A stretch of 64,000 bases of DNA from a virus (IMGVR_UViG_3300028591_000101:90403-154402); one strand, 5' to 3'. Positions 4,601 to 63,875 are shown, counted from the stretch's first letter. Numbers and translations: made by a program. The notes: a model not told the origin generated them from the sequence alone.

Positions 4601-7600
4601 CGGTTACACTATTGAGGGTGACATAAAATATCGTTATTATGTTCCGACTGGCCTTATAAGTAACGTTGATATAGAAGGGGCTTCATTTAGGTCAATGTTC
4701 GCCACGCTTAATCATCACACTCTGAATGCGACTGAACGAAATGATGTTACGGGATATAAGAAATATAATTTCAGGTTTTTGCGCCCGGATGGATTTGATG
4801 GTTCTTTGGGAAGCATTGTCCATCTTCCGAATTCGCCGTATAACAAAAAAGTAAATGATAGGGCTGAACATCATTACATAACCGATGCAACAAGTCTTTT
4901 TGAAAGATTGTTTATGGGCGCTTGGCAAAGACCAGATGATTATGACCCTAAGGAGATTGAATACACCGAAAGAAGAACTGTTGAAGACCAGATTGATGAC
5001 TATTTCATGTTTAGATTTGGCCTTGAAGGGTTTAGCAATAATGAACAGAGAAAGCACTTCTTATCAAAGAAGGGCCGTGGTTATATTTTCCCGCAGTACG
5101 AAAATTCCTTCTATTTTTACTTCGGTCTAAAGGATGGTTCAACTGCGCTTGATGAATTTAAGAAACAATTCTTTAGCGAGTGTCAGTCAAACAACGTCAT
5201 GAAGGAGCCTTTAATCAACATAAATGAAACAATAGATAGCAATCTTAACGGAAAGGCGCTACTGACGATTGATAATATGATTCCGCCATATGAGATAACT
5301 GTTATTGACAGCACGAGCGGTGATAAATTTGGCCCGAAAACATTTGAAATTGATACCATGCAGCTTGCTACAATAGTTGAGACTGGTTTATCAATTGGGC
5401 ATGAATATGTTGTTACGGTTACGGATAGTATTGATAATTCATTAACTAAAAAGTTTGTTTTCGGTGCAGATGCCGTACAAATTGATGTGCAAACCGTTAA
5501 TTTTAGGGTTCCAGCCACAGGTCCGACAAATACCCCGAATAAGGGTGGTTTCATTAAAATAAACCACAATCTTACTATTCTGAATAGCGGATATACTGTT
5601 GGAGATGGAGTTAGTTTTAAATTCAGAAAGGTTGAGAATGGTGTACCGGGACCGTACGAAACATATTCCGAAACAACGTACATTGATGCTGGTGGCGAAA
5701 TGTGGCATCTATATTATGTGCCGTCCGTTGGTACATTTGAAGTGCTAGCGTATTATCACGATAACTATGTCTCTGTTTACACCACGAAGATTGAGGATAA
5801 TAGAACGGTAAACCTTTATGTTGCTTGCGATTATCTTTCATATAAGCCAGAATACAAGGGTGGTTCAGTCTATGCCCCCGCGTTTAATGGCGGTCTGAAG
5901 AACATATCAAATGCTGATTGGTATAATGGGGCCCCATTCCGTGGTTCTGGCTGGGAAAATTGGCTAATGCGTCATACATATTATCGCCAAACAGAAAATG
6001 ATGCCCTGTCCTATGACAATTATATTTACACGAAGGGTAAGTGTGATGTTGCCATCTTTGGCCAGCCGGAAAAGGGAGGTAGTGTTCCTGGGGCTAGTTT
6101 GAATGGAACAGGCGTTGATGCGCAAGGAAATACACCAAATAGTTATTCCAATGATTATGATGACTTCCCGGGCTATGTTGTAGACGATACATATACCTAT
6201 ATACCCACAATGTACTTTAATCCATCAAATAAACTGGAACAAACTGGGGTGTTTAGGAATGCGTTTGACGCTATGTCTTATACCGAAGATGGGCGTGCGG
6301 CTGCAGATGCTCTTGACGCGAACATAACGTCATATAATTTTTCAGATGGAACCGTAACACTTGGTTTTTCTGGTGGAAATGGAAAATTGACGAATGGACA
6401 TGGTTGTATTGTTGTATTTGAGGACGGTACGATTATGTTCCCGGTTGTTCGGGGAGGAAATTTGGTTGCAAAGTATCCAACAGATATATACCCAGAAGGT
6501 CCTGCAACACAATTGCTTTCAATGGCAACAATTTATCCGACGTTGAGGATTCCTTCTGTATATAAGCCATTCTATGGGGAAATTTCCGCCGCTACATGGA
6601 GTCTTGTTGCTCTGTCGGTGTCGCCAAATGAAAATAATGAAACTGTTGCCTTAAGAAATAATTTACCGGCATCATATAAGGTTGAGGGTAATATTTTCAA
6701 TGGTCTTACGTGGAATAATCATTTTTATTCTGGGGATACAGCTGGTGAATATGATACATATTTCATGTACAAGAACGACAGAAGATTTTATGATGCACTG
6801 ACAACAAACTCAAGCCTTGATTACGAATGTAAGAGGAAAATTACCCCTGATGGTAAGTTTGGTCAGGGTTCATGGATTGCTACCGGTTTTGCCTATGGGC
6901 GTGAAATAAGCGCATTTACTGATAGCGTTGTGGATATAAATCAAATCTCTTATGCTGTAAGGGAAGGAATACCACCGGAAGAAGCGATTAAGGCCTCTTA
7001 TCCAAATGTATTTACTGAGAGGTATTTGGGTGGTTTTGACCATACATTACTGAAGGATAGTTGCTCTTTTGAAACGGCATTCTACGAAGACCTCGTCATA
7101 AAGCTTTTTGACACTAACAGTGAAATGTCTGGACAATGGACCGTATATTCAGATGAAGGGGCTTTGGGCGCAGAAACCAAATATTATATTTCGTCCGCTG
7201 AGATATTTGACAGGTCTCAGTCGCCAATGGTCGTTGATGAAGCGTATGACAACGACAATAGCAACAGACAAAAATATTGTCACGGATATTATAATAAGAA
7301 TGCAAAAAACGATAAAAAGGGCGAAATTGTTTCCGTAACATATAGAAATCCGCTAATCGGAAGCACCAGGTATGAATATTATATAACTAATGACAGTGGT
7401 GCTAGAGTCAAAGAAGAGGTGAGGCCAGCATCTGAGAGTGAATTATATAATGTTGGAATTACGTTACTGCACGGATATACCATAAAGCCAGTATTCGCTT
7501 TAAACTTGGATACTCTTTCATCCATTGTCAATGGAGGTCAAGAATTTGAGGTTTCAACAAAGGGAAAAATTAAGAATGTTTTCAGCGGAGAAAACCTCAA

Positions 7601-8092: not shown

Positions 8093-10294
8093 GTGAAAAA
8101 AATGCAAAGGAAACTTTTACAAGAAAAAAGTTTAAATAGAATGCGCGGTAATGCGGAGAAGTCAATGAATGTTGACCTCTCCGCAAAATCACGTCTTATA
8201 CCCTTTTCAGATACTGCAGATATGTTGAGCCTTAATGACTTGTATATTGAAGAAAGGGATGCTTGTGAAAATTATCGCATGATTCTGTCGGTTAATCCTA
8301 TATGCAGCAACATATTATATAATGCAGTAACTGAACCGGTATATAAGGAAGGAAGTTATTCCGCAATCAATCTTGCCATAGAGACGGTGAGGAAAGATAA
8401 TACTGATATATTTCCAGAAGGCACCATGAACCAGAGCGGTGACACTGATGGAAATAAAATAGTTGACCAAATAGGTGCTGTACGTGATACAGAGTATTCG
8501 CACGAAAGAATCGGAAATTTCAAATATCATTGTGGGTACGATTTTTTCAACAACCATCTTTTAAGGACGAGTGAGTTTGAGCACGTAAAAATGGAAGAGA
8601 GTGTGACTCCGAAAAATGCAGTTGAATTCAATACCATTTTTGATTTTGCAATTGACCATAGTGGAAAAACGGTCACCAGGGTTATAGGGGAAAGCGAAGG
8701 CCCAGTGAGAGGAAGTGACTTGGTACGCGAAAACATAAGAATGTATCAATTGGACAACATGAGGTCAATTAATACAGCATTTTATGATGAATTTAGAGAG
8801 CTTAATGGCTGGTACGGGTTTTATAATACAGGATACATAAACATTCCGAACGGGAAATTAAACGGAGAAGAAATTTCATTAAACCGAATATTGAACAATG
8901 AAGTTCCGTGTGGCTTTGTTGATTTATATCCGGACAGGTCGTTATATAGCTTCATCCCAAAAGTAAATCGTTTCAAAAAGAGATTGGAAAGGAATTGGGA
9001 TTGTACTGTTGTGTATCCATATAAGAGTGATTACGAAACGTTTGGAAAAATTAACAAAAACCTTGCGAATGCTGTAAGAGTCATAAATGCAAAAATTGTT
9101 TATAATAACGTTGGTGACGAACTTATCCAGATGCATACCCTTTTAAGGCATACACTTAATCCGGGCGACGAAATAAGACTCTTTTATCGTGACAGCCAAG
9201 GAGAGGCACTTTTTGATAATATGGAATGGGAAGAATACCTTGCTACGAATGGGGTTGAAGTTCGCAGATATACAGTTCCAGTAAAGGTTATTAGTGTTGG
9301 CGACCAGAAAGGAAACGACAAAAAGCATTATTTCACCATAAAAATGTCCGATGTTAATATCATATGTGGTGTGATTGAGTCCGAAGGCAAAACTAAACTA
9401 CCGGGGATTAAGGATTCAACGGGTAATGTATCCGGCCCGATTTATTTTTTCTATAAGAAGATTGAAAACGGCGTTGATGATAGGTACTATTTCAGAAAGT
9501 TCAAGCAGTTATTAAACTATGAATATGTTATGATTCTTCCGGATGAGGTACCAAGCGAAGAATACGCCGAACTTGTCGGGAGGGCCACCAAAGTAATACA
9601 TGAACCAACGACAATCAATGAAAACAGCCCGAAAATAATACGGCTTGCTAATGACATATTTGTTCGCGTATCAAGGCCTCTGACATATACCCAGAATAAG
9701 ATTGCATTTGGAGAGAATATCTACGGAGATAGGGTTGCCCAGGTCATCTTTAATGATGACATATGTGTAAGTGGCCTTAAAGACAACCTTGGGAGGCCAT
9801 TAACAAGTGTTTATTTTGCATCCGTCAAGACAAACAGAGGTCATAAAGAATGGTACGAAGAGAATAATTTTACGGCGGATACTGTTGAATATTCTCACTG
9901 TTTCGGAGATGTAACGTCTGGCCTTGACTTACCGTCAGATGAAGAGTCAACGGAATACAACGTGAGGAAACTTTATAATGTATTTATTGAAAATCCGGAC
10001 TTTGACAGGGATTATGCTGAAGGACTTTCACTAGCTTTATATGACGCTCCGACTGGAAATTACAGCGGAACCCCGACCCCGCTTGAAAGTGCTATAACAG
10101 TTGATGATTTTGATGAATTTTTCGGTGATATAGTTGAATTTAGCAAAATTGATTTCATTGAGACGCCCATTGAAAAAGTCTATCACAGATTCAATACGGC
10201 CCAAAGAGAGTGTTTGTCTAACAACAAATACTTTGACATAAATTATGATAATCTGGTCGGAGACCTGTTTGATGTAGATGAAGTAAATGAATAA
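8093..10294 (+). CDS. Virion structural protein (baseplate region), start codon uncertain
   Basis: 733 aa ORF tightly packed in operon. Confidence 0.6.
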   Translation: MKKMQRKLLQEKSLNRMRGNAEKSMNVDLSAKSRLIPFSDTADMLSLNDLYIEERDACENYRMILSVNPICSNILYNAVTEPVYKEGSYSAINLAIETVRKDNTDIFPEGTMNQSGDTDGNKIVDQIGAVRDTEYSHERIGNFKYHCGYDFFNNHLLRTSEFEHVKMEESVTPKNAVEFNTIFDFAIDHSGKTVTRVIGESEGPVRGSDLVRENIRMYQLDNMRSINTAFYDEFRELNGWYGFYNTGYINIPNGKLNGEEISLNRILNNEVPCGFVDLYPDRSLYSFIPKVNRFKKRLERNWDCTVVYPYKSDYETFGKINKNLANAVRVINAKIVYNNVGDELIQMHTLLRHTLNPGDEIRLFYRDSQGEALFDNMEWEEYLATNGVEVRRYTVPVKVISVGDQKGNDKKHYFTIKMSDVNIICGVIESEGKTKLPGIKDSTGNVSGPIYFFYKKIENGVDDRYYFRKFKQLLNYEYVMILPDEVPSEEYAELVGRATKVIHEPTTINENSPKIIRLANDIFVRVSRPLTYTQNKIAFGENIYGDRVAQVIFNDDICVSGLKDNLGRPLTSVYFASVKTNRGHKEWYEENNFTADTVEYSHCFGDVTSGLDLPSDEESTEYNVRKLYNVFIENPDFDRDYAEGLSLALYDAPTGNYSGTPTPLESAITVDDFDEFFGDIVEFSKIDFIETPIEKVYHRFNTAQRECLSNNKYFDINYDNLVGDLFDVDEVNE

Positions 10295-11187: not shown

Positions 11188-13059
11188 ATGAAAACATTTA
11201 AGATTACAAAAAAAACAAACGAACCCGTAATTACTGTCCCAATTGATAAAGTTTATTATCAGTTGATATCAAGTGGTGCGGATATGTGCCTTGCTGTTAA
11301 CAAAAAAGTATCTTTTGAATTAAGCGAGGGAAGCAAAATACGTTTTACAAAATACGCAAGTGGTAATTCTGGTGAGATGATAACTGTATGTGAGGACGAT
11401 GCGGTTATTAAAAAGATAGTTGATTCCGGGGATTATAGATATTGTTATTTTGATTATATTTTCATAAAGCCCTATACGGTTGAATCTTTTCTTAAGATAA
11501 ACAGTGTGGATGGGTATAAATACAAATTTTACTTTACAACAGATGTCACAATGGCACCTGGTGATTTCTTATGCTATAACTCGTATAAATTATATGTAAA
11601 AAAGAACAACGGCGATATAGTCTATTTTGGTGACCTTGCGCAATGTTATCCGGATGAAATAACCGCCGGACAAGACATAAACGATATCGGAGGATATTGT
11701 TGTGATGACGAAAAAGAGCGTTTTAATTACGAAACGATGGAAAAAAACAGCGTATTGGCAAAAATAAGCGGGATAACCAAAGGCCAGCAGTTCACTCCAT
11801 CCCCAGGAGACCAAGTTCTATTCGCAACAAATCCATATTATTTTAGTCTAAGCGACGGTAAAAGGGTAAATACATTCGGCGACGGATGCAATCCGGGGAG
11901 CGATGTTGTTGTCTCAAAGTATACAAATTACATGGGGCTAGGTATTTCCATTGATGAGGATTATGACGCTAAGAGAATGTTTCAGGAGTATCAGGTAAAT
12001 GATTTGTTTATAAAGAAAATTAAAAACAGCATAATACCAGATTTCATTGACCTTGAAAAAGTTAAATATGCTCCGGCGTTCTTTAAAGAATATAAATCCG
12101 GGACAACCGAAGATGATGAAACGACTTTCAATGAGCTTGAGTTGGCAACCGGTCTTACATTTAACCTGCATTTCCGTTCAAGAAACATGCTAAGCGAGCT
12201 TGAAACCGGTTCAAAATACGAATTTGAAGACGTTTGGCATGTTGATGATGCGACTGAAACATGGAATGGGAATGGATTAAATAGGAACGGCAGTTTTGAT
12301 TTGAAGTACAAGGAAGATTTTTACACTACCGCACAAGAAGAATTTTTGAACTCATCAAATCTTATAGGGTATCTTGGCTTCACAGATGATGATATATACA
12401 ACCAGAAAAACAGGGTAAAACAAACATTCATACGTCTTTCATTTTATGATGATGACAACCCGCTGACCCAGAATTTGCTTTATTATTCTACGATATTTTT
12501 AGATAGTGGCGAATTGTATGGAAAGTTTGTGAAGAGAAAGGCCGAGCTTCTTGACGCGAATGAAAATCACAATTTTTTGGAGTTTCCAGTAGTGTGGTCA
12601 CCGGCGTCAGAAAACTACAATTCAAGTGCTGTCACAACACAAATTACGGTCAATGACGAATATGACATATCAAAGTCCGGAGAGGGATTTAATCTGTATC
12701 TTTTTAGACAGGACGCACCCATTGAAAACTACCCGCAGGATATTTATATGAAAATAGAGTTTAACCATGCCGGAAACGGAAGAACAGTACCTCTCATTTT
12801 CTGGAGAAAGCAGTCAGATGGTATGGGCGGTACGGTTGACATACCGGTTGACCTAACAATTGAGAATTACCTTAAAAACCTTTATATTAAGGTAAGGATT
12901 TCGTTAACGGATAGGGGGTATGTATACAGTTTCCCAGATGCTGTTGCGGCTGATAATGAAGAAATGGGTGGAAGGCGAAATGGTATCGTGTGGGAAAACG
13001 ACAGATTAGTGTTTAACCTTTTTGAACCTATGATAACTCCGGACAATTTTGAAGACTAA
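11188..13059 (+). CDS. Virion structural protein
   Basis: 623 aa ORF, 1 nt after previous stop. Confidence 0.6.
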   Translation: MKTFKITKKTNEPVITVPIDKVYYQLISSGADMCLAVNKKVSFELSEGSKIRFTKYASGNSGEMITVCEDDAVIKKIVDSGDYRYCYFDYIFIKPYTVESFLKINSVDGYKYKFYFTTDVTMAPGDFLCYNSYKLYVKKNNGDIVYFGDLAQCYPDEITAGQDINDIGGYCCDDEKERFNYETMEKNSVLAKISGITKGQQFTPSPGDQVLFATNPYYFSLSDGKRVNTFGDGCNPGSDVVVSKYTNYMGLGISIDEDYDAKRMFQEYQVNDLFIKKIKNSIIPDFIDLEKVKYAPAFFKEYKSGTTEDDETTFNELELATGLTFNLHFRSRNMLSELETGSKYEFEDVWHVDDATETWNGNGLNRNGSFDLKYKEDFYTTAQEEFLNSSNLIGYLGFTDDDIYNQKNRVKQTFIRLSFYDDDNPLTQNLLYYSTIFLDSGELYGKFVKRKAELLDANENHNFLEFPVVWSPASENYNSSAVTTQITVNDEYDISKSGEGFNLYLFRQDAPIENYPQDIYMKIEFNHAGNGRTVPLIFWRKQSDGMGGTVDIPVDLTIENYLKNLYIKVRISLTDRGYVYSFPDAVAADNEEMGGRRNGIVWENDRLVFNLFEPMITPDNFED

Positions 13060-13067
13060 GGACCAAT

Positions 13068-15089
13068 ATGGATTATATAAAGAAGATAATATGCATTGAG
13101 GATGCCAGGACTAGAACGCAGGGAATAATGCCTTACTATGAATTTGGTAAGGAATATGACCAGCATGTTACTGGCTGCTCTAGCATTACTTCGCTTAATT
13201 TGGAGATTGCATCCGGGGATAATGGAAACTGGGGCCAATTTGTCGCCAATCCTTGTTTTCTTTCAAACAAAGGTAAGTCATACGAAGCGATGCTCCAAAA
13301 ATATTATGATATCTTGAATATCGTCCGTAATGGTATCAAGCTTCGTAAAGTTCAGTATAAAGAGGATGATATAATCTTTACTGAAGACCTTGATGCTTTT
13401 TCGTACAACAATAACAGCAATTGCTTTTCTGGCGGTACGGATATTGATTTGTATGATTTAGCTGCCCGCCCGTCCAGCTGTTTTTATTCAACAGAAATTC
13501 ATAGTTTGCGAGATGGTGCAGAACGGGTATACAAATCAAATGAAATACTTTCTGACCAATATGTTGTTCTTATTGATGATTATGATTCATTCCAGAAACT
13601 TGCAAGCTATCTAGATGGTACTGATTACGAGCCACATACTAACGAACAAAAGAAATGGTCAGCATATTGCAAACAAGTTGACGAGTTTATAGGAAGACTT
13701 AGCGTACCGGCAAGTGTTTACAACAAGCATCTTAAAGTGCCTAAAGTGATGGCGTACTCCGATGTTAAAAGCTATCGTGACTGGCTTGCGAACTACCGCA
13801 CTCTTTCCGCAGACTGTTGCAACATGAAATTGTGGGAGGACCGTGGTGGACAAGATATGCTTGATTTCCTTAACGGAAAGATAGGTGATGTCAATCGTGC
13901 CATAAACTGGGTGAATAGTTTGAGCTATTCCGTTCCATGCATTGAAATGCCGCTCTTAATTAGCCAAAATTTTACCGATGTTGGTACTTTGACCAATATA
14001 GATGGAACTGAATATGTTGAAAATTATGTAGAAGGAAGTGGTGACGGGAAGAGGCCACACGGACACGGAAACCAAGAGAGGGCTTTCACTATTGACCAAA
14101 TTTCCATTACGGGAGAAAGAAAACGTTACCCAAAAACCGGAGAAGGCTCAATAGAAGTTGAATCGTTACTTAAAACGTTAAGAACTCGCAAAAAGTATAT
14201 GGATGACGATGATAATGTTCTCCCTGGTCTTTTTCAGAGTTTTAATAACCCTTCTGGTGTCTTTGTACACTGCACTAAATCTGGCGGAAATTGGAGTGTT
14301 TCTGAATGCGGTGGGTCCGGGCTGTTAAATGGTGATGGAAAAACAAGCGCAGAATTGGCGAACACAAATTACTATCGCTCGGTAACAACTAAAGCCTCAG
14401 CAAAACGAATTTCGGAAGTTTATGATGAGGAGCCAGGAAACCCAGCCGCAACAAGTTTTTATTTTAGAGTAAAATATGACAACAGCGAAGATACTCACAT
14501 GACAATTCCGTATGCTGTAGGAAATGTCACAAATGTCTACCTGGTTGATGAGGATACAAATCTTTATAGAGGTGATTTTATAATCGGTTTGACCGCAACG
14601 TCGGTGTATGTTGACGTAAATTATGTGATTGGCGGGTATTTTATTGGAACCGATATGGGTGAATATGTGTCGTACAGTGGAGGGGGTGATGTTTACTATG
14701 AAAGGCGCACGCTTGATAACAAACATGTTGATTATGTAAATCTTGATGGTGTTGACAATGTTCCAATATGGAGTGACTATATTGACTTTGAAAGCGACGC
14801 AAAGGAATTCTATAGTCCGAGGTATAACCTTTATAGAACCGGAACGACGGCAAATATAATTGAAACATCAACGGCGGAGATATGGAACGAAGACTATGCT
14901 TTTGATGCTTATCTTGCGAAAGAAGATTATTTGACTAATTTTTCAAATTTTCCAAAGGTTGATGTAAATGTAACGATAGATAGAGGTGGTGTGTCGGCCT
15001 TTGAGAGGCACTATAAATTAACAGAATGTAATACAATGCAGGACCTTGAAACATACGGAAATGGGTGGTTTCTTCCTGACAATCAATAA
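13068..15089 (+). CDS. Virion structural protein
   Basis: 673 aa ORF in operon. Confidence 0.6.
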   Translation: MDYIKKIICIEDARTRTQGIMPYYEFGKEYDQHVTGCSSITSLNLEIASGDNGNWGQFVANPCFLSNKGKSYEAMLQKYYDILNIVRNGIKLRKVQYKEDDIIFTEDLDAFSYNNNSNCFSGGTDIDLYDLAARPSSCFYSTEIHSLRDGAERVYKSNEILSDQYVVLIDDYDSFQKLASYLDGTDYEPHTNEQKKWSAYCKQVDEFIGRLSVPASVYNKHLKVPKVMAYSDVKSYRDWLANYRTLSADCCNMKLWEDRGGQDMLDFLNGKIGDVNRAINWVNSLSYSVPCIEMPLLISQNFTDVGTLTNIDGTEYVENYVEGSGDGKRPHGHGNQERAFTIDQISITGERKRYPKTGEGSIEVESLLKTLRTRKKYMDDDDNVLPGLFQSFNNPSGVFVHCTKSGGNWSVSECGGSGLLNGDGKTSAELANTNYYRSVTTKASAKRISEVYDEEPGNPAATSFYFRVKYDNSEDTHMTIPYAVGNVTNVYLVDEDTNLYRGDFIIGLTATSVYVDVNYVIGGYFIGTDMGEYVSYSGGGDVYYERRTLDNKHVDYVNLDGVDNVPIWSDYIDFESDAKEFYSPRYNLYRTGTTANIIETSTAEIWNEDYAFDAYLAKEDYLTNFSNFPKVDVNVTIDRGGVSAFERHYKLTECNTMQDLETYGNGWFLPDNQ

Positions 15090-30168: not shown

Positions 30169-30621
30169 TTATCTGAGCCTGCTATCTATTATTTCATTTG
30201 CTTTGCACTGTATTAAAGTGGATAAAGTGCCGCTTTTCCATAACAAGTCTTCCAGCCTTCCAGCAATGAAATTATAGAACAATTTTTCAGTCATCTCTTT
30301 GATAATGTCATCCTGATTCAAAACATCCTGTATCCTTTCTTTTACGCCGCTTAATACATTTTCAACATCAAGTTCGTGTACAATGTTTTCAAGTCTGCGG
30401 GTCGGTTCAATCTCTTCCGTTTCACGACCATAATAGTCTTTCTTCTTGGAATAGAAAAGCCTTCGTATGACTTCACTATCCATGACATATTGGCTTATTG
30501 CCTTGCCGAGTATGTCATGTATTTCAGCATCGGTAAATGTTCCAAGTTCCTTTTCCACTAGGTCCTTGAAACGAGTTTCGTCTAAATTAATCTCTATTTT
30601 CATATCGCTATTGTTTGTCAT
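30169..30621 (-). CDS. Hypothetical protein (start may be 30603)
   Basis: ORF in minus-strand operon. Confidence 0.6.
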   Translation of the reverse strand: MTNNSDMKIEINLDETRFKDLVEKELGTFTDAEIHDILGKAISQYVMDSEVIRRLFYSKKKDYYGRETEEIEPTRRLENIVHELDVENVLSGVKERIQDVLNQDDIIKEMTEKLFYNFIAGRLEDLLWKSGTLSTLIQCKANEIIDSRLR

Positions 30622-60476: not shown

Positions 60477-60551
60477 GCCCTTGTAGCTGAATTGGTTAAA
60501 GCTCCACCCTTTTAAGGTGCGTGATTGTGGGTTCGAGTCCCACCGGGGGCA
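60477..60551 (+). tRNA. tRNA-Lys(UUU)
   Basis: Loop ctTTTaa. Confidence 0.85.
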
Positions 60552-60558
60552 CAAATAT

Positions 60559-60747: not shown

Positions 60748-60837
60748 GGGAGAGTATCGTCGGCGGTCTGTAAAACCGTTCCCTTTAATAGTGACGTACT
60801 GGCTTAGGGTAAGTGGGTTCGAATCCCTCCTCTCCCA
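60748..60837 (+). ncRNA. D-arm-less tRNA-Tyr(GUA)-like RNA with enlarged variable arm
   Basis: GGGAGAG/CTCTCCC-A; GCGGT-ctGTAaa-ACCGT; only 8 nt between acceptor and anticodon stems. Confidence 0.65.
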
Positions 60838-61209: not shown

Positions 61210-61384
61210 GACCTTGTAGCTCAGTTGGTAGAGCACGACACTTTATAAGGGGTGGTTCACCGTAACGAACCAAACCGTTAGAATTCGAGCAGTGGAAAAC
61301 ACTTGGGAAACAGGTGAGGCACGGGTGCAAGTCCCGTTAACGGTTCTAATGTCGGGGTCGCGGGTTCGAGCCCCGCCGGGGTCA
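61210..61384 (+). tRNA. tRNA-Lys(UUU)-like gene interrupted in the anticodon by ~102-nt insert
   Basis: Canonical 5' half to CGACA-CTTT and 3' half TAA-TGTCG...GGTTCGAGCCC...GGTCA. Confidence 0.7.
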
Positions 61385-61547: not shown

Positions 61548-61624
61548 GCTGGGTTAATCTGCTAGTTGGTCGAGGCGGGGTGCCTTTCAAGCATCCGACT
61601 CCGGTTCGAATCCGGAACCCAGTA
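61548..61624 (+). tRNA. tRNA-Glu(UUC), atypical D-arm
   Basis: GGTGC-ctTTCaa-GCATC. Confidence 0.7.
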
Positions 61625-61641
61625 CAAGTTCATTGAAATAT

Positions 61642-63053: not shown

Positions 63054-63155
63054 AGCTCTTTGAAATAAAAATTTTATCAAAAAATGGTAGTATAAAATAC
63101 TATAACGCCTCTACTTTTTGTGGGTACGAAACTATTTATATGTAAAAGTATAAAT

Positions 63156-63875
63156 ATGAAACGTTACAATCACACAGAAAATGATTATCGAGAAGCAGCT
63201 AAAAATTCCCACAGTATAGCTGGAATGTGCAAATATTTAGGCCGTTCGCCATACGGGGCCGGATATTATATGATGCACAAAAAAATAGAAGAATATGGGA
63301 TAGACATTTCTCATTTTACCGGACAAGGTTGGAATTTAGATGGAAAAAATTTAAATAAAGGAGTAAAACGCTCAGATGAGGATGTGTTTTGTGAAAATTC
63401 AACATATAACACAAGTCAGTTACGAAAAAGGTTAATTTCTGCCGGGTATAAGATTGAAATGTGCGAAAAATGCGGTCGCATCGAGTGGGAAGGTCAAAAG
63501 ATACCATTAGAAACGCACCACATAAATGGAATACATAACGATAATAGACTTGAAAATTTAATGCTGCTCTGTCCAAATTGTCACGCATTAACTGATAACT
63601 ACTGTTCAAAAAATAAAAAGAAAAAAAAGAAAGTAAAAGTAATGAGCCCGGTCGGTGTTGAAAAGGTTTGTCCGATATGCGGTAAAAAATTTTTTGCAAA
63701 AAATAGAAATCAAAAATATTGTTCGCAAAAATGTTATCATAGTACAACCAACAAGAGGCCGGAAAGGGACATTTTGGAAAAGTTAGTAACAGAAAACACG
63801 AATACAAAAATAGGAAAAATGTATGGCGTAAGTGAAAGTATGGTTAGAAAATGGAGGAAAATGTACGATATTTGA
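63156..63875 (+). CDS. HNH homing-endonuclease-like protein
   Basis: CEKCG...LETHHINGIHNDNRLENLMLLCPNCH; C-terminal HTH. Confidence 0.85.
   Translation: MKRYNHTENDYREAAKNSHSIAGMCKYLGRSPYGAGYYMMHKKIEEYGIDISHFTGQGWNLDGKNLNKGVKRSDEDVFCENSTYNTSQLRKRLISAGYKIEMCEKCGRIEWEGQKIPLETHHINGIHNDNRLENLMLLCPNCHALTDNYCSKNKKKKKKVKVMSPVGVEKVCPICGKKFFAKNRNQKYCSQKCYHSTTNKRPERDILEKLVTENTNTKIGKMYGVSESMVRKWRKMYDI

Follow-up and report, generated by a model that had tools for sequence, protein, structure and literature searches.

A phage tRNA-Lys(UUU) gene with a 102-nt, apparently tRNA-shaped intron of probable Lak type

Positions 61210-61384 of a 64,000-nt stretch of viral DNA (the window; IMGVR_UViG_3300028591_000101:90403-154402) contain a real tRNA-Lys(UUU) gene of a large gut or rumen phage, interrupted by a 102-nt intron. 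The window is the final part of a phage record of 154,402 bp in IMG/VR (G000). Introns described as 'highly conserved' and 'enigmatic' have been reported in tRNAs of the Lak megaphages of Prevotella (Devoto et al. 2019, Nat Microbiol, PMC6784885; Fig. 4 and Table S6). We give a probability of about one half to the reading that the window intron is of this Lak type, that it has spread at the DNA level, and that it is removed by a route that reads the structure of the intron and not the exons. Splicing and each of the enzymatic steps proposed below are what we infer from sequence comparison, while the anatomy of the gene, its junction, its membership in a family of such introns, the free-standing copies and the covariation are shown.

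The Rfam tRNA model (RF00005) spans 61210-61384 at model positions 1-71 with a score of 49.1 bits (gathering score 29, E 2e-8), and its alignment skips about 105 nt in the anticodon loop. ARAGORN in intron mode places a 102-nt intron there and calls the product Arg(UCU). Exon 1 (61210-61244, + strand, as are all elements of this gene) comprises the 5' strand of the acceptor stem, the D arm, the anticodon-stem strand CGACA and the loop nucleotides CUUU (positions 32-35), and is supported by Rfam, by double changes among homologs and by intron-less alleles. Exon 2 (61347-61384), defined by Rfam, the homologs and RNAalifold, supplies the loop nucleotides UAA (positions 36-38), the 3' strand of the anticodon stem, the variable loop, the T arm, the 3' strand of the acceptor stem and a discriminator A; CCA is not encoded at its end. 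The acceptor strand GACCUUG and the T stem GCGGG are exon variants that mark the window gene. An earlier reading of the same DNA (hereafter the initial annotation) had described the two tRNA halves, the insert and its helices, and all of these are present.

The intron (61245-61346) has no open reading frame (ORF), and its borders follow from ARAGORN and from intron-less alleles (CTTT+TAA). Its first 28 nt (61245-61272) form a 5' domain built on a plan common to the eight other intron types described below. This domain starts with a lead, AUA (61245-47), and contains a putative helix P1, in which AGG (61248-50) would pair with CCG (61260-62), as well as a helix P2, TGGTTC (61253-58) with GAACCA (61267-72), in which one pair shows a compensatory change from GC to AU in a homolog (L032). 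The inner part that follows (61273-61345) is 73 nt long and has the proportions of a tRNA: an 8-bp stem, a 5-bp arm with the 7-nt loop GGGAAAC and a 4-nt variable stretch. Its closing, acceptor-like stem pairs AACCGTTA (61273-61280) with TAACGGTT (61338-61345), and the latter is followed by a single unpaired C (61346), the last base of the intron; this arrangement is referred to here as the helix + C rule. Between the two strands, the region 61281-61320, drawn from the RNAalifold consensus and nearly invariant across nine copies, holds a D-like part (TTC/GAA, with GG in the loop), an anticodon-like hairpin (CACTT-GGGAAAC-AGGTG, 61300-61316; a U.G to U-A change occurs among homologs) and the variable stretch AGGC. 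A T-arm-like hairpin, ACGGG-TGCAAGT-CCCGT (61321-61337), is invariant in the nine copies. This 17-mer is identical to the T arms of many ordinary phage tRNAs, and the first search pattern used here matched such T arms. The variant ACGGG-UGCAAGU-CCCGU, with G where pseudouridine 55 normally sits, is found exactly in many unrelated phage tRNAs of IMG/VR (L002-L024).

Homologs of the insert were identified in several related phages. Exact pieces of it match one other IMG/VR record, G001, a complete 168-kb phage with terminal repeats, through the locus L018; apart from this gene, G001 shares only three short, tRNA-sized matches with the window array. A purine/pyrimidine pattern run over a metagenome collection added seven further loci, five of which (L032-L036) have the insert within the corresponding tRNA gene. 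The initial annotation had pointed to orthologous loci as a place to look, and there the insert is kept in at least seven diverged phages, with the cloverleaf intact in six. Within IMG/VR the exact and purine/pyrimidine patterns returned L018 alone plus one chance match, GenBank phages yielded exon matches and no intron homolog, and the module is absent at pattern level from 185,579 GTDB species genomes, where two chance matches were obtained. A loose structural scan of the whole of G000 found no second intron of this kind, and a pattern modelled on two of the related types (b and c, see below) had a single match, an unrelated tRNA-like gene.

Taken alone, the inner domain of the window intron falls below every tRNA threshold. 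The proposal of the initial annotation that the insert is tRNA-shaped is borne out by comparison: without guidance, RNAalifold recovers from the seven interrupted genes both the outer cloverleaf and all of the intron helices. On a structure drawn by us for the same seven genes, 99.1% of the cells are paired, and the covariation score was matched by no shuffle. Double changes affect four exon pairs and one P2 pair in the interrupted genes, and the closing stem is 100% paired in the nine copies, with 4/8 of its pairs altered on both sides in L037 and L038.

Three products can be drawn on paper from the interrupted gene, namely Lys UUU, Arg UCU and an ochre suppressor. The junction predicted for Lys was sought as DNA in IMG/VR, which returned 76 loci with an uninterrupted tRNA-Lys(UUU). 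Three of them (L115, L042 and L058) belong to phage tRNA arrays and match the exons of interrupted copies almost completely, and each reads CTTTTAA. L115, in a 411-kb record, and L042 are closest to the exons of L033, and L058 to those of L018 and L036, with 71/73 identical positions in each case; L042 and L058 are identical to the window's own exons at 68/73 positions. Because the intron-less alleles read CTTTTAA, the intron is assigned to 61245-61346 and the product to tRNA-Lys(UUU), the junction that the initial annotation had preferred. The same alleles rule out the Arg(UCU) reading of ARAGORN, and the ochre-suppressor reading (CUUUAAA) is dropped on the same grounds. The intron thus lies between anticodon positions 35 and 36 (CUUU/A...C/UAA), and the predicted junction of the spliced RNA is CACUUU-UAAUGUCG. 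Presence of the intron is polymorphic, with seven interrupted copies and several intron-less alleles. Two other tRNA genes of G001 bear unusual labels. One (L029, reverse-complement coordinates 8968-9042) is labelled tRNA-Stop(tta) by ARAGORN and has the loop CTTTTAA, so it is an ordinary, mis-registered tRNA-Lys(UUU); the other (13238-13309, 72 nt, anticodon UCA) is labelled SeC and could be an opal suppressor.

Eight further intron types were found in Asn, Arg, Val, Tyr, Phe and Thr tRNAs of related phage arrays (types b, c, d, e, f, h, i and j, the window intron being type a). They were flagged by the intron mode of ARAGORN on these arrays, and their junctions were fixed from the nearest uninterrupted tRNA. 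The genes are located at L033 11278-11455 (Asn), 11632-11794 (Val) and 6187-6346 (Tyr), all three on the - strand in reverse-complement coordinates; L034 6985-7163 (Asn); L036 5289-5474 (Arg; - strand, reverse-complement coordinates); L042 7752-7913 (Arg); L054 4191-4349 (Phe); and L058 5585-5740 (Thr). Types b and c interrupt tRNA-Asn(GUU): the nearest uninterrupted tRNA of type b is Asn(GUU), and the exons of type c are identical to an uninterrupted tRNA-Asn(GUU) at 61/65 positions. Types d and h are in Arg(UCU) genes with A20 in both bodies; the nearest uninterrupted tRNA of type d is Arg(UCU), and the loop of type h was derived by hand. The nearest uninterrupted or intron-less tRNA likewise identifies type e as Val(UAC), type f, with a class II body, as Tyr(GUA), and type i, which ARAGORN calls Cys, as Phe(GAA). 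Type j is in Thr(UGU), its anticodon arm being identical to that of an uninterrupted gene. The isotypes given by ARAGORN are wrong for most of these eight genes because the program positions the intron according to tRNA rules instead of the helix + C rule. Another gene in L033 (reverse-complement coordinates 8627-8745), tRNA-Lys-like with 45.8 bits in Rfam, has a 45-nt insert that departs from the family plan, and its anticodon stem is unclear.

The other types are unrelated in sequence to the window intron and identical to it in architecture. Each consists of a 3-nt lead (mostly AUA, also CUA or AAA), the 5' domain, and a tRNA-shaped domain whose closing stem adjoins a T-arm-like hairpin, then one unpaired C and exon 2. 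The 5' domain measures 25-31 nt, and exactly 28 nt in six of the nine types; the closing stem has 7-8 bp and is followed by a single C in all nine. The end motifs, AUA[A/C][A/G]G ... C, are conserved. The inner domains of types c and d alone exceed the Rfam tRNA threshold (34.7 and 35.1 bits, respectively), and ARAGORN folds the inner parts of types b, c and d as tRNAs ending at the final intron bases. The D and T arms of types b and c resemble those of E. coli tRNA-Glu. The position of the intron in the loop varies (34/35, 35/36 or 36/37), and exon 1 can end in any of the four bases (U, U, G, C, U, A and so on across the types). Since neither the loop position nor the flanking exon bases are constant, the splice sites appear to be defined by the intron. 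In all nine types, the exon pieces of the loop total 7 nt and the resulting anticodon fits the tRNA body.

The 5' domain has a second common feature. In types a, b, c, d and h, nucleotides +4 to +6 read CGG, or AGG in the case of a and b, and have a possible pairing partner in an invariant CCG that lies in the loop of the next hairpin, P2, whose stem has 4-6 bp. In types e, f, i and j, the same nucleotides are CAG and are paired with CUG, as they are, by eye, in the Lak introns. The loop of the small hairpin also pairs with the following linker in types e and j (AACCC/GGGTT and GTCT/AGAC, respectively), and the second helix is weak or absent in AU-rich members (f, i and the Lak introns). From these few sequences, the 5' domain may be an H-type pseudoknot abutting the closing stem, and CGG/CCG versus CAG/CUG would represent a compensated change between subclasses.

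The module also exists outside tRNAs. In L037 (about 8490-8590, - strand) and L038 (705-802), a copy of about 97 nt lies outside any tRNA, directly behind a promoter-like box and at the start of a non-coding stretch. Its core of about 80 nt is almost invariant between these two loci and the intron copies, and its closing stem reads AATTGCTG/CAGCAATT instead of AACCGTTA/TAACGGTT, with all cells paired. The region looks like an RNA-only operon. The occurrence of the module outside a tRNA with a fully compensated closing stem, and the low variation of the intron, which hints at recent spread, may be new points. Directly 3' of the module in L038 is a tRNA-like gene (803-874, 29.5 bits) with a tRNA-Glu-like D arm and without a proper anticodon arm. 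Further downstream, L037 and L038 have in common a conserved non-coding block (CCCGRAACCTTGAGGGAG..AAAACGATAGG) followed by a terminator-like hairpin.

The interrupted gene is part of an array of about 25 tRNA genes on the + strand that extends from 57.7 kb to the end of the window (ARAGORN and Rfam). CheckV estimates the completeness of G000 at 42%; at 154 kb, the full phage is therefore probably larger than 300 kb. Proteins with BACON and BspA-type leucine-rich repeat domains are encoded near the array, a hint of a Bacteroidota host. The array includes a redundant, uninterrupted tRNA-Lys(UUU) (60477-60552, +; ARAGORN; Rfam, 61.6 bits), where the initial annotation had placed an intact copy. 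A 251-aa ORF with an HNH endonuclease domain (63120-63875, +) lies within the array, with tRNA-Leu(aag) on one side and tRNA-Leu(caa) on the other; it is a possible free-standing homing nuclease, which would be relevant to the mobility of introns or tRNA cassettes. Two further genes of the array are irregular. The tRNA-like gene at 60748-60836 (+) combines an anticodon loop with GUA (Tyr), an unusual D region and an extra arm that is long, scores 26.7 bits with the Rfam tRNA-Sec model, which is under the threshold, and is not called by ARAGORN. The weak tRNA at 61551-61625 (+; Rfam, 33.7 bits), directly 5' of a normal tRNA-Glu(CUC), is for ARAGORN a 65-nt tRNA-Glu(UUC) without a normal D arm.

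RNase Z cuts tRNA precursors after the first unpaired base 3' of the acceptor stem. This is the position of the 3' splice site in all nine types, an agreement that is positional only. In the route that we favor, RNase Z would cut after C61346 and leave a 5'-phosphate on exon 2, and a second endonuclease would act 3 nt 5' of the first helix of the intron. An enzyme of the RNase E/G type is a guess for the latter: RNase E/G prefers a context resembling that of the 5' site, in which any base precedes the cut and (A/U)U and then a structure follow it. The ends produced by RNase Z and RNase E would be a 3'-OH and a 5'-phosphate, the substrates of ATP-dependent RNA ligases, and such a ligase, from the phage or the host, would seal the nick. 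The released intron would act as an RNA in its own right; since it is the same RNA as a free-standing phage gene, it probably has its own job. That the introns are spliced is favored by the nine types found here and four Lak introns, each of which leaves seven loop nucleotides and an anticodon appropriate to the body. The conserved intron ends and the persistence of the element in at least seven diverged phages argue in the same direction.

The enzymes that such a route would require were searched for in the two phage records. G001 encodes an ORF with PF09414 and a PHA02142 OB fold that is RNA-ligase-like. Neither G000 nor G001 yielded RtcB, EndA, RNase E/G or the CCA enzyme. Rnl1 was not found in either record, and the same search matched no control genome either. 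The suggestion of the initial annotation to look for rtcB and rnl genes thus led to a ligase-like ORF in G001, to none in G000 and to RtcB in neither. The control genome of Bacteroides thetaiotaomicron contains RNase E/G, RtcB and the CCA enzyme. The PNK-like kinase that the initial annotation had placed at 30608 turned out to be a generic AAA_33 P-loop kinase domain.

Several observations weigh against the reading of a spreading Lak-type intron removed through its own structure. The RNase P position, at the 5' end of the closing stem, lies 25-31 nt inside the intron (28 nt in the window). RNase P and RNase Z alone therefore cannot give the Lys junction; excision by tRNA-processing nucleases, as the initial annotation had envisaged, agrees with the 3' cut and fails for the 5' cut. 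Type c lacks the U at +2 that RNase E favors, and the 154 kb of G000, an estimated 42% of the phage, yielded neither a ligase nor RtcB nor a splicing endonuclease. An intact tRNA-Lys(UUU) is present in the window array and in every related array seen, so that the interrupted gene could be dispensable. The single-sequence fold energy is ordinary (z of -0.75 and -1.2), and the structural support is therefore comparative, not thermodynamic. In L032 (2423-2597), the acceptor 5' strand TGCGCAG cannot pair with its 3' strand; this copy is probably decaying or rearranged. Finally, 8 of the 102 columns of the intron are variable versus 19 of the 73 exon columns (Fisher p = 0.0013), and the exon covariation may reflect invasion of diverged functional alleles by the intron rather than selection after insertion. 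The same low variation, together with the existence of intron-less alleles, is the basis for proposing DNA-level spread between alleles, and it suggests that the intron moved recently into alleles that had already diverged.

A new small ribozyme, in which the 5' pseudoknot and the tRNA-shaped domain excise the intron, seems unlikely to us. It would act either by self-splicing or by two self-cleavages joined by host RtcB, whose substrates would be the 2',3'-cyclic phosphate and 5'-OH ends. Such a ribozyme would agree with splice sites set by intron structure and not by exon sequence, with the near-constant length of the 5' domain (about 28 nt) and the conserved end motifs, and with a core nearly invariant in nine copies; a dedicated endonuclease gene was found in neither G000 nor G001, and RtcB is available in the Bacteroides control genome. 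However, known self-cleaving ribozymes (hammerhead, twister, pistol, hatchet, HDV-like and others; Rfam 15) gave no match at E up to 10 in the 196 nt searched, and the intron matches no Rfam family. In addition, the intron types show no relation to one another in the middle of the inner domain, which would be surprising in a catalytic core; the AU-rich types f and i and the Lak introns have a weak pseudoknot or none; and the module also occurs where no splicing is needed (L037 and L038).

These free-standing loci, with the same near-invariant core, speak for a different explanation, in which the gene is a carrier and remains unspliced: RNase P and RNase Z would recognize the outer and inner tRNA shapes and free the inner RNA, identical to that of the free-standing gene, and the Lys halves would be discarded or serve as a decoy for anticodon nucleases, an idea of the initial annotation on which the results bear neither way. 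The ends of the inner domains are of RNase P and RNase Z type, it is an established principle that tRNA-like elements can signal processing, and an intact tRNA-Lys(UUU) is always present as well. We nevertheless regard this explanation as doubtful; the exon pieces of the loop in the nine types always total 7 nt with an anticodon that fits the body. A carrier would have no need for conserved remnants of an anticodon loop, although a recent insertion would look alike. Least probable of all is a dead tRNA, hit recently by a small selfish DNA element that targets anticodon loops and tolerated through the redundancy of the array: presence/absence polymorphism, an intron more uniform than the exons, the HNH endonuclease ORF at 63120-63875 and the broken acceptor stem of L032 are in its favor, but at least seven diverged phages retain the element, six of them with an intact cloverleaf, a transposon-like element is rejected in that neither terminal inverted repeats nor target duplications are seen at the borders, the Lak phages show the same long-term conservation, and insertion is precise in nine types, none of which has damaged exons.

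Bacterial and phage tRNA introns are, in textbooks, group I ribozymes, and protein-dependent tRNA splicing is seen as a trait of archaea and eukaryotes. It is on balance probable that introns of about 100 nt such as the one in the window define a form of phage or bacterial tRNA splicing that is neither group I nor of the bulge-helix-bulge (BHB) type, through a new ribozyme class or through RNase Z, a second endonuclease and an RNA ligase, with release of a tRNA-mimic RNA that also exists as a stand-alone gene. A family whose splice sites are read from the intron would be either a new ribozyme or tRNA splicing of a third kind, and it recurs in many tRNAs of large Bacteroidota-type phages. The rules given here correct the anticodons assigned by tRNA finders (Lys and not Arg in the window, Phe and not Cys in L054, probably Asn and not Tyr in Lak), a point of consequence when codon use or recoding is inferred from phage tRNA sets. 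They also make the family testable, cheaply, with a 175-nt transcript.

Group I introns are known in the anticodon loops of tRNAs, for example in cyanobacterial tRNA-Leu(UAA) and in Azoarcus tRNA-Ile (about 205 nt). The window intron resembles them in its location in the anticodon loop of a bacterial-type tRNA, in its presence/absence polymorphism and in the lack of an ORF, which is shared by minimal group I forms. However, the insert has half the smallest known size, lacks a P3-P9 core and ends in C instead of omega G. The view of the initial annotation that 102 nt is too short for a group I intron agrees with the missing hallmarks: Intron_gpI gives no match at E up to 10, all nine types end in C, and there is no conserved U.G at the 5' site. 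A P1-like pairing, CACUUU/GGGGUG, can be drawn in type a and is not conserved in b, c and d.

In archaea and eukaryotes, BHB introns of tRNAs are cut by the splicing endonuclease and the exons are joined by RtcB or Trl1. These introns also lie in or near the anticodon loop, and some archaeal ones contain a functional RNA, the C/D box RNA of the tRNA-Trp intron being an example. The window intron differs in that no BHB can be drawn: by inspection, CUUU and the nucleotides ahead of the 3' site do not form a 4-bp helix between two 3-nt bulges, and the same is true of type b. Furthermore, EndA (PF01974) is absent from G000 and from its complete relative G001, and the host is very probably bacterial.

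In plant mitochondrial t-elements and in the mascRNA of MALAT1, tRNA-shaped elements mark RNase P and RNase Z cuts in longer transcripts. The likeness is that a tRNA shape marks the cut, the 3' splice site of the window intron being at the RNase Z position; the difference is that those elements set transcript ends, are not inside another tRNA and involve no rejoining. In T4 infection, PrrC nicks tRNA-Lys at 33/34, and Pnkp and Rnl1 repair it. There too, the anticodon loop of tRNA-Lys(UUU) is opened and resealed by an RNA ligase during infection, but the nick is inflicted by the host, no intervening sequence is removed, and the window intron family is not specific to Lys. The link to PrrC drawn in the initial annotation finds no foothold: nothing ties the insert to PrrC, and the same plan occurs in Asn, Arg, Val, Tyr, Phe and Thr tRNAs.

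The closest known system is that of the Lak megaphages, and the initial annotation's notion of a new intron type is superseded, as the kind was already reported in 2019 (PMC6784885). The Lak authors stated that, to their knowledge, phage tRNA introns were previously unreported, that one of the introns may encode a tRNA and that the introns had no Rfam match (PMC6784885). In a literature search no later paper explaining Lak-type introns or their mechanism was found, and the introns described in the Jug phage paper are group I introns in protein genes only. Lak introns and the window intron are ORF-less inserts in anticodon loops, about 80-115 nt long, conserved and polymorphic in presence. In our own reading of Table S6, each of the four Lak introns combines a short 5' hairpin (ACAG../CUGU) and an A/U linker with a closing stem of 7-8 bp that sits next to a TTCGAAT-type T arm, and a single C comes last; by this shared plan, the window intron appears to be of the same kind. 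Compared by eye from the same table, the sequences are unrelated. Window-type introns also have a G+C-richer 5' domain, a CGG/CCG-type putative pseudoknot and a UGCAAGU T loop, their genome has a G+C content of about 40% versus 26% in Lak, and the module is found outside tRNAs, another difference from Lak. The Lak paper gives neither an architecture rule nor a mechanism, and its tRNAscan junctions differ from those of the helix + C rule, by which the Lak 'Tyr(GTA)' gene, with its class I body, would probably be Asn(GUU). What is added here to the Lak description is an explicit rule for architecture and junctions, a 5' pseudoknot-like domain, free-standing copies of the module and evidence of recent spread.

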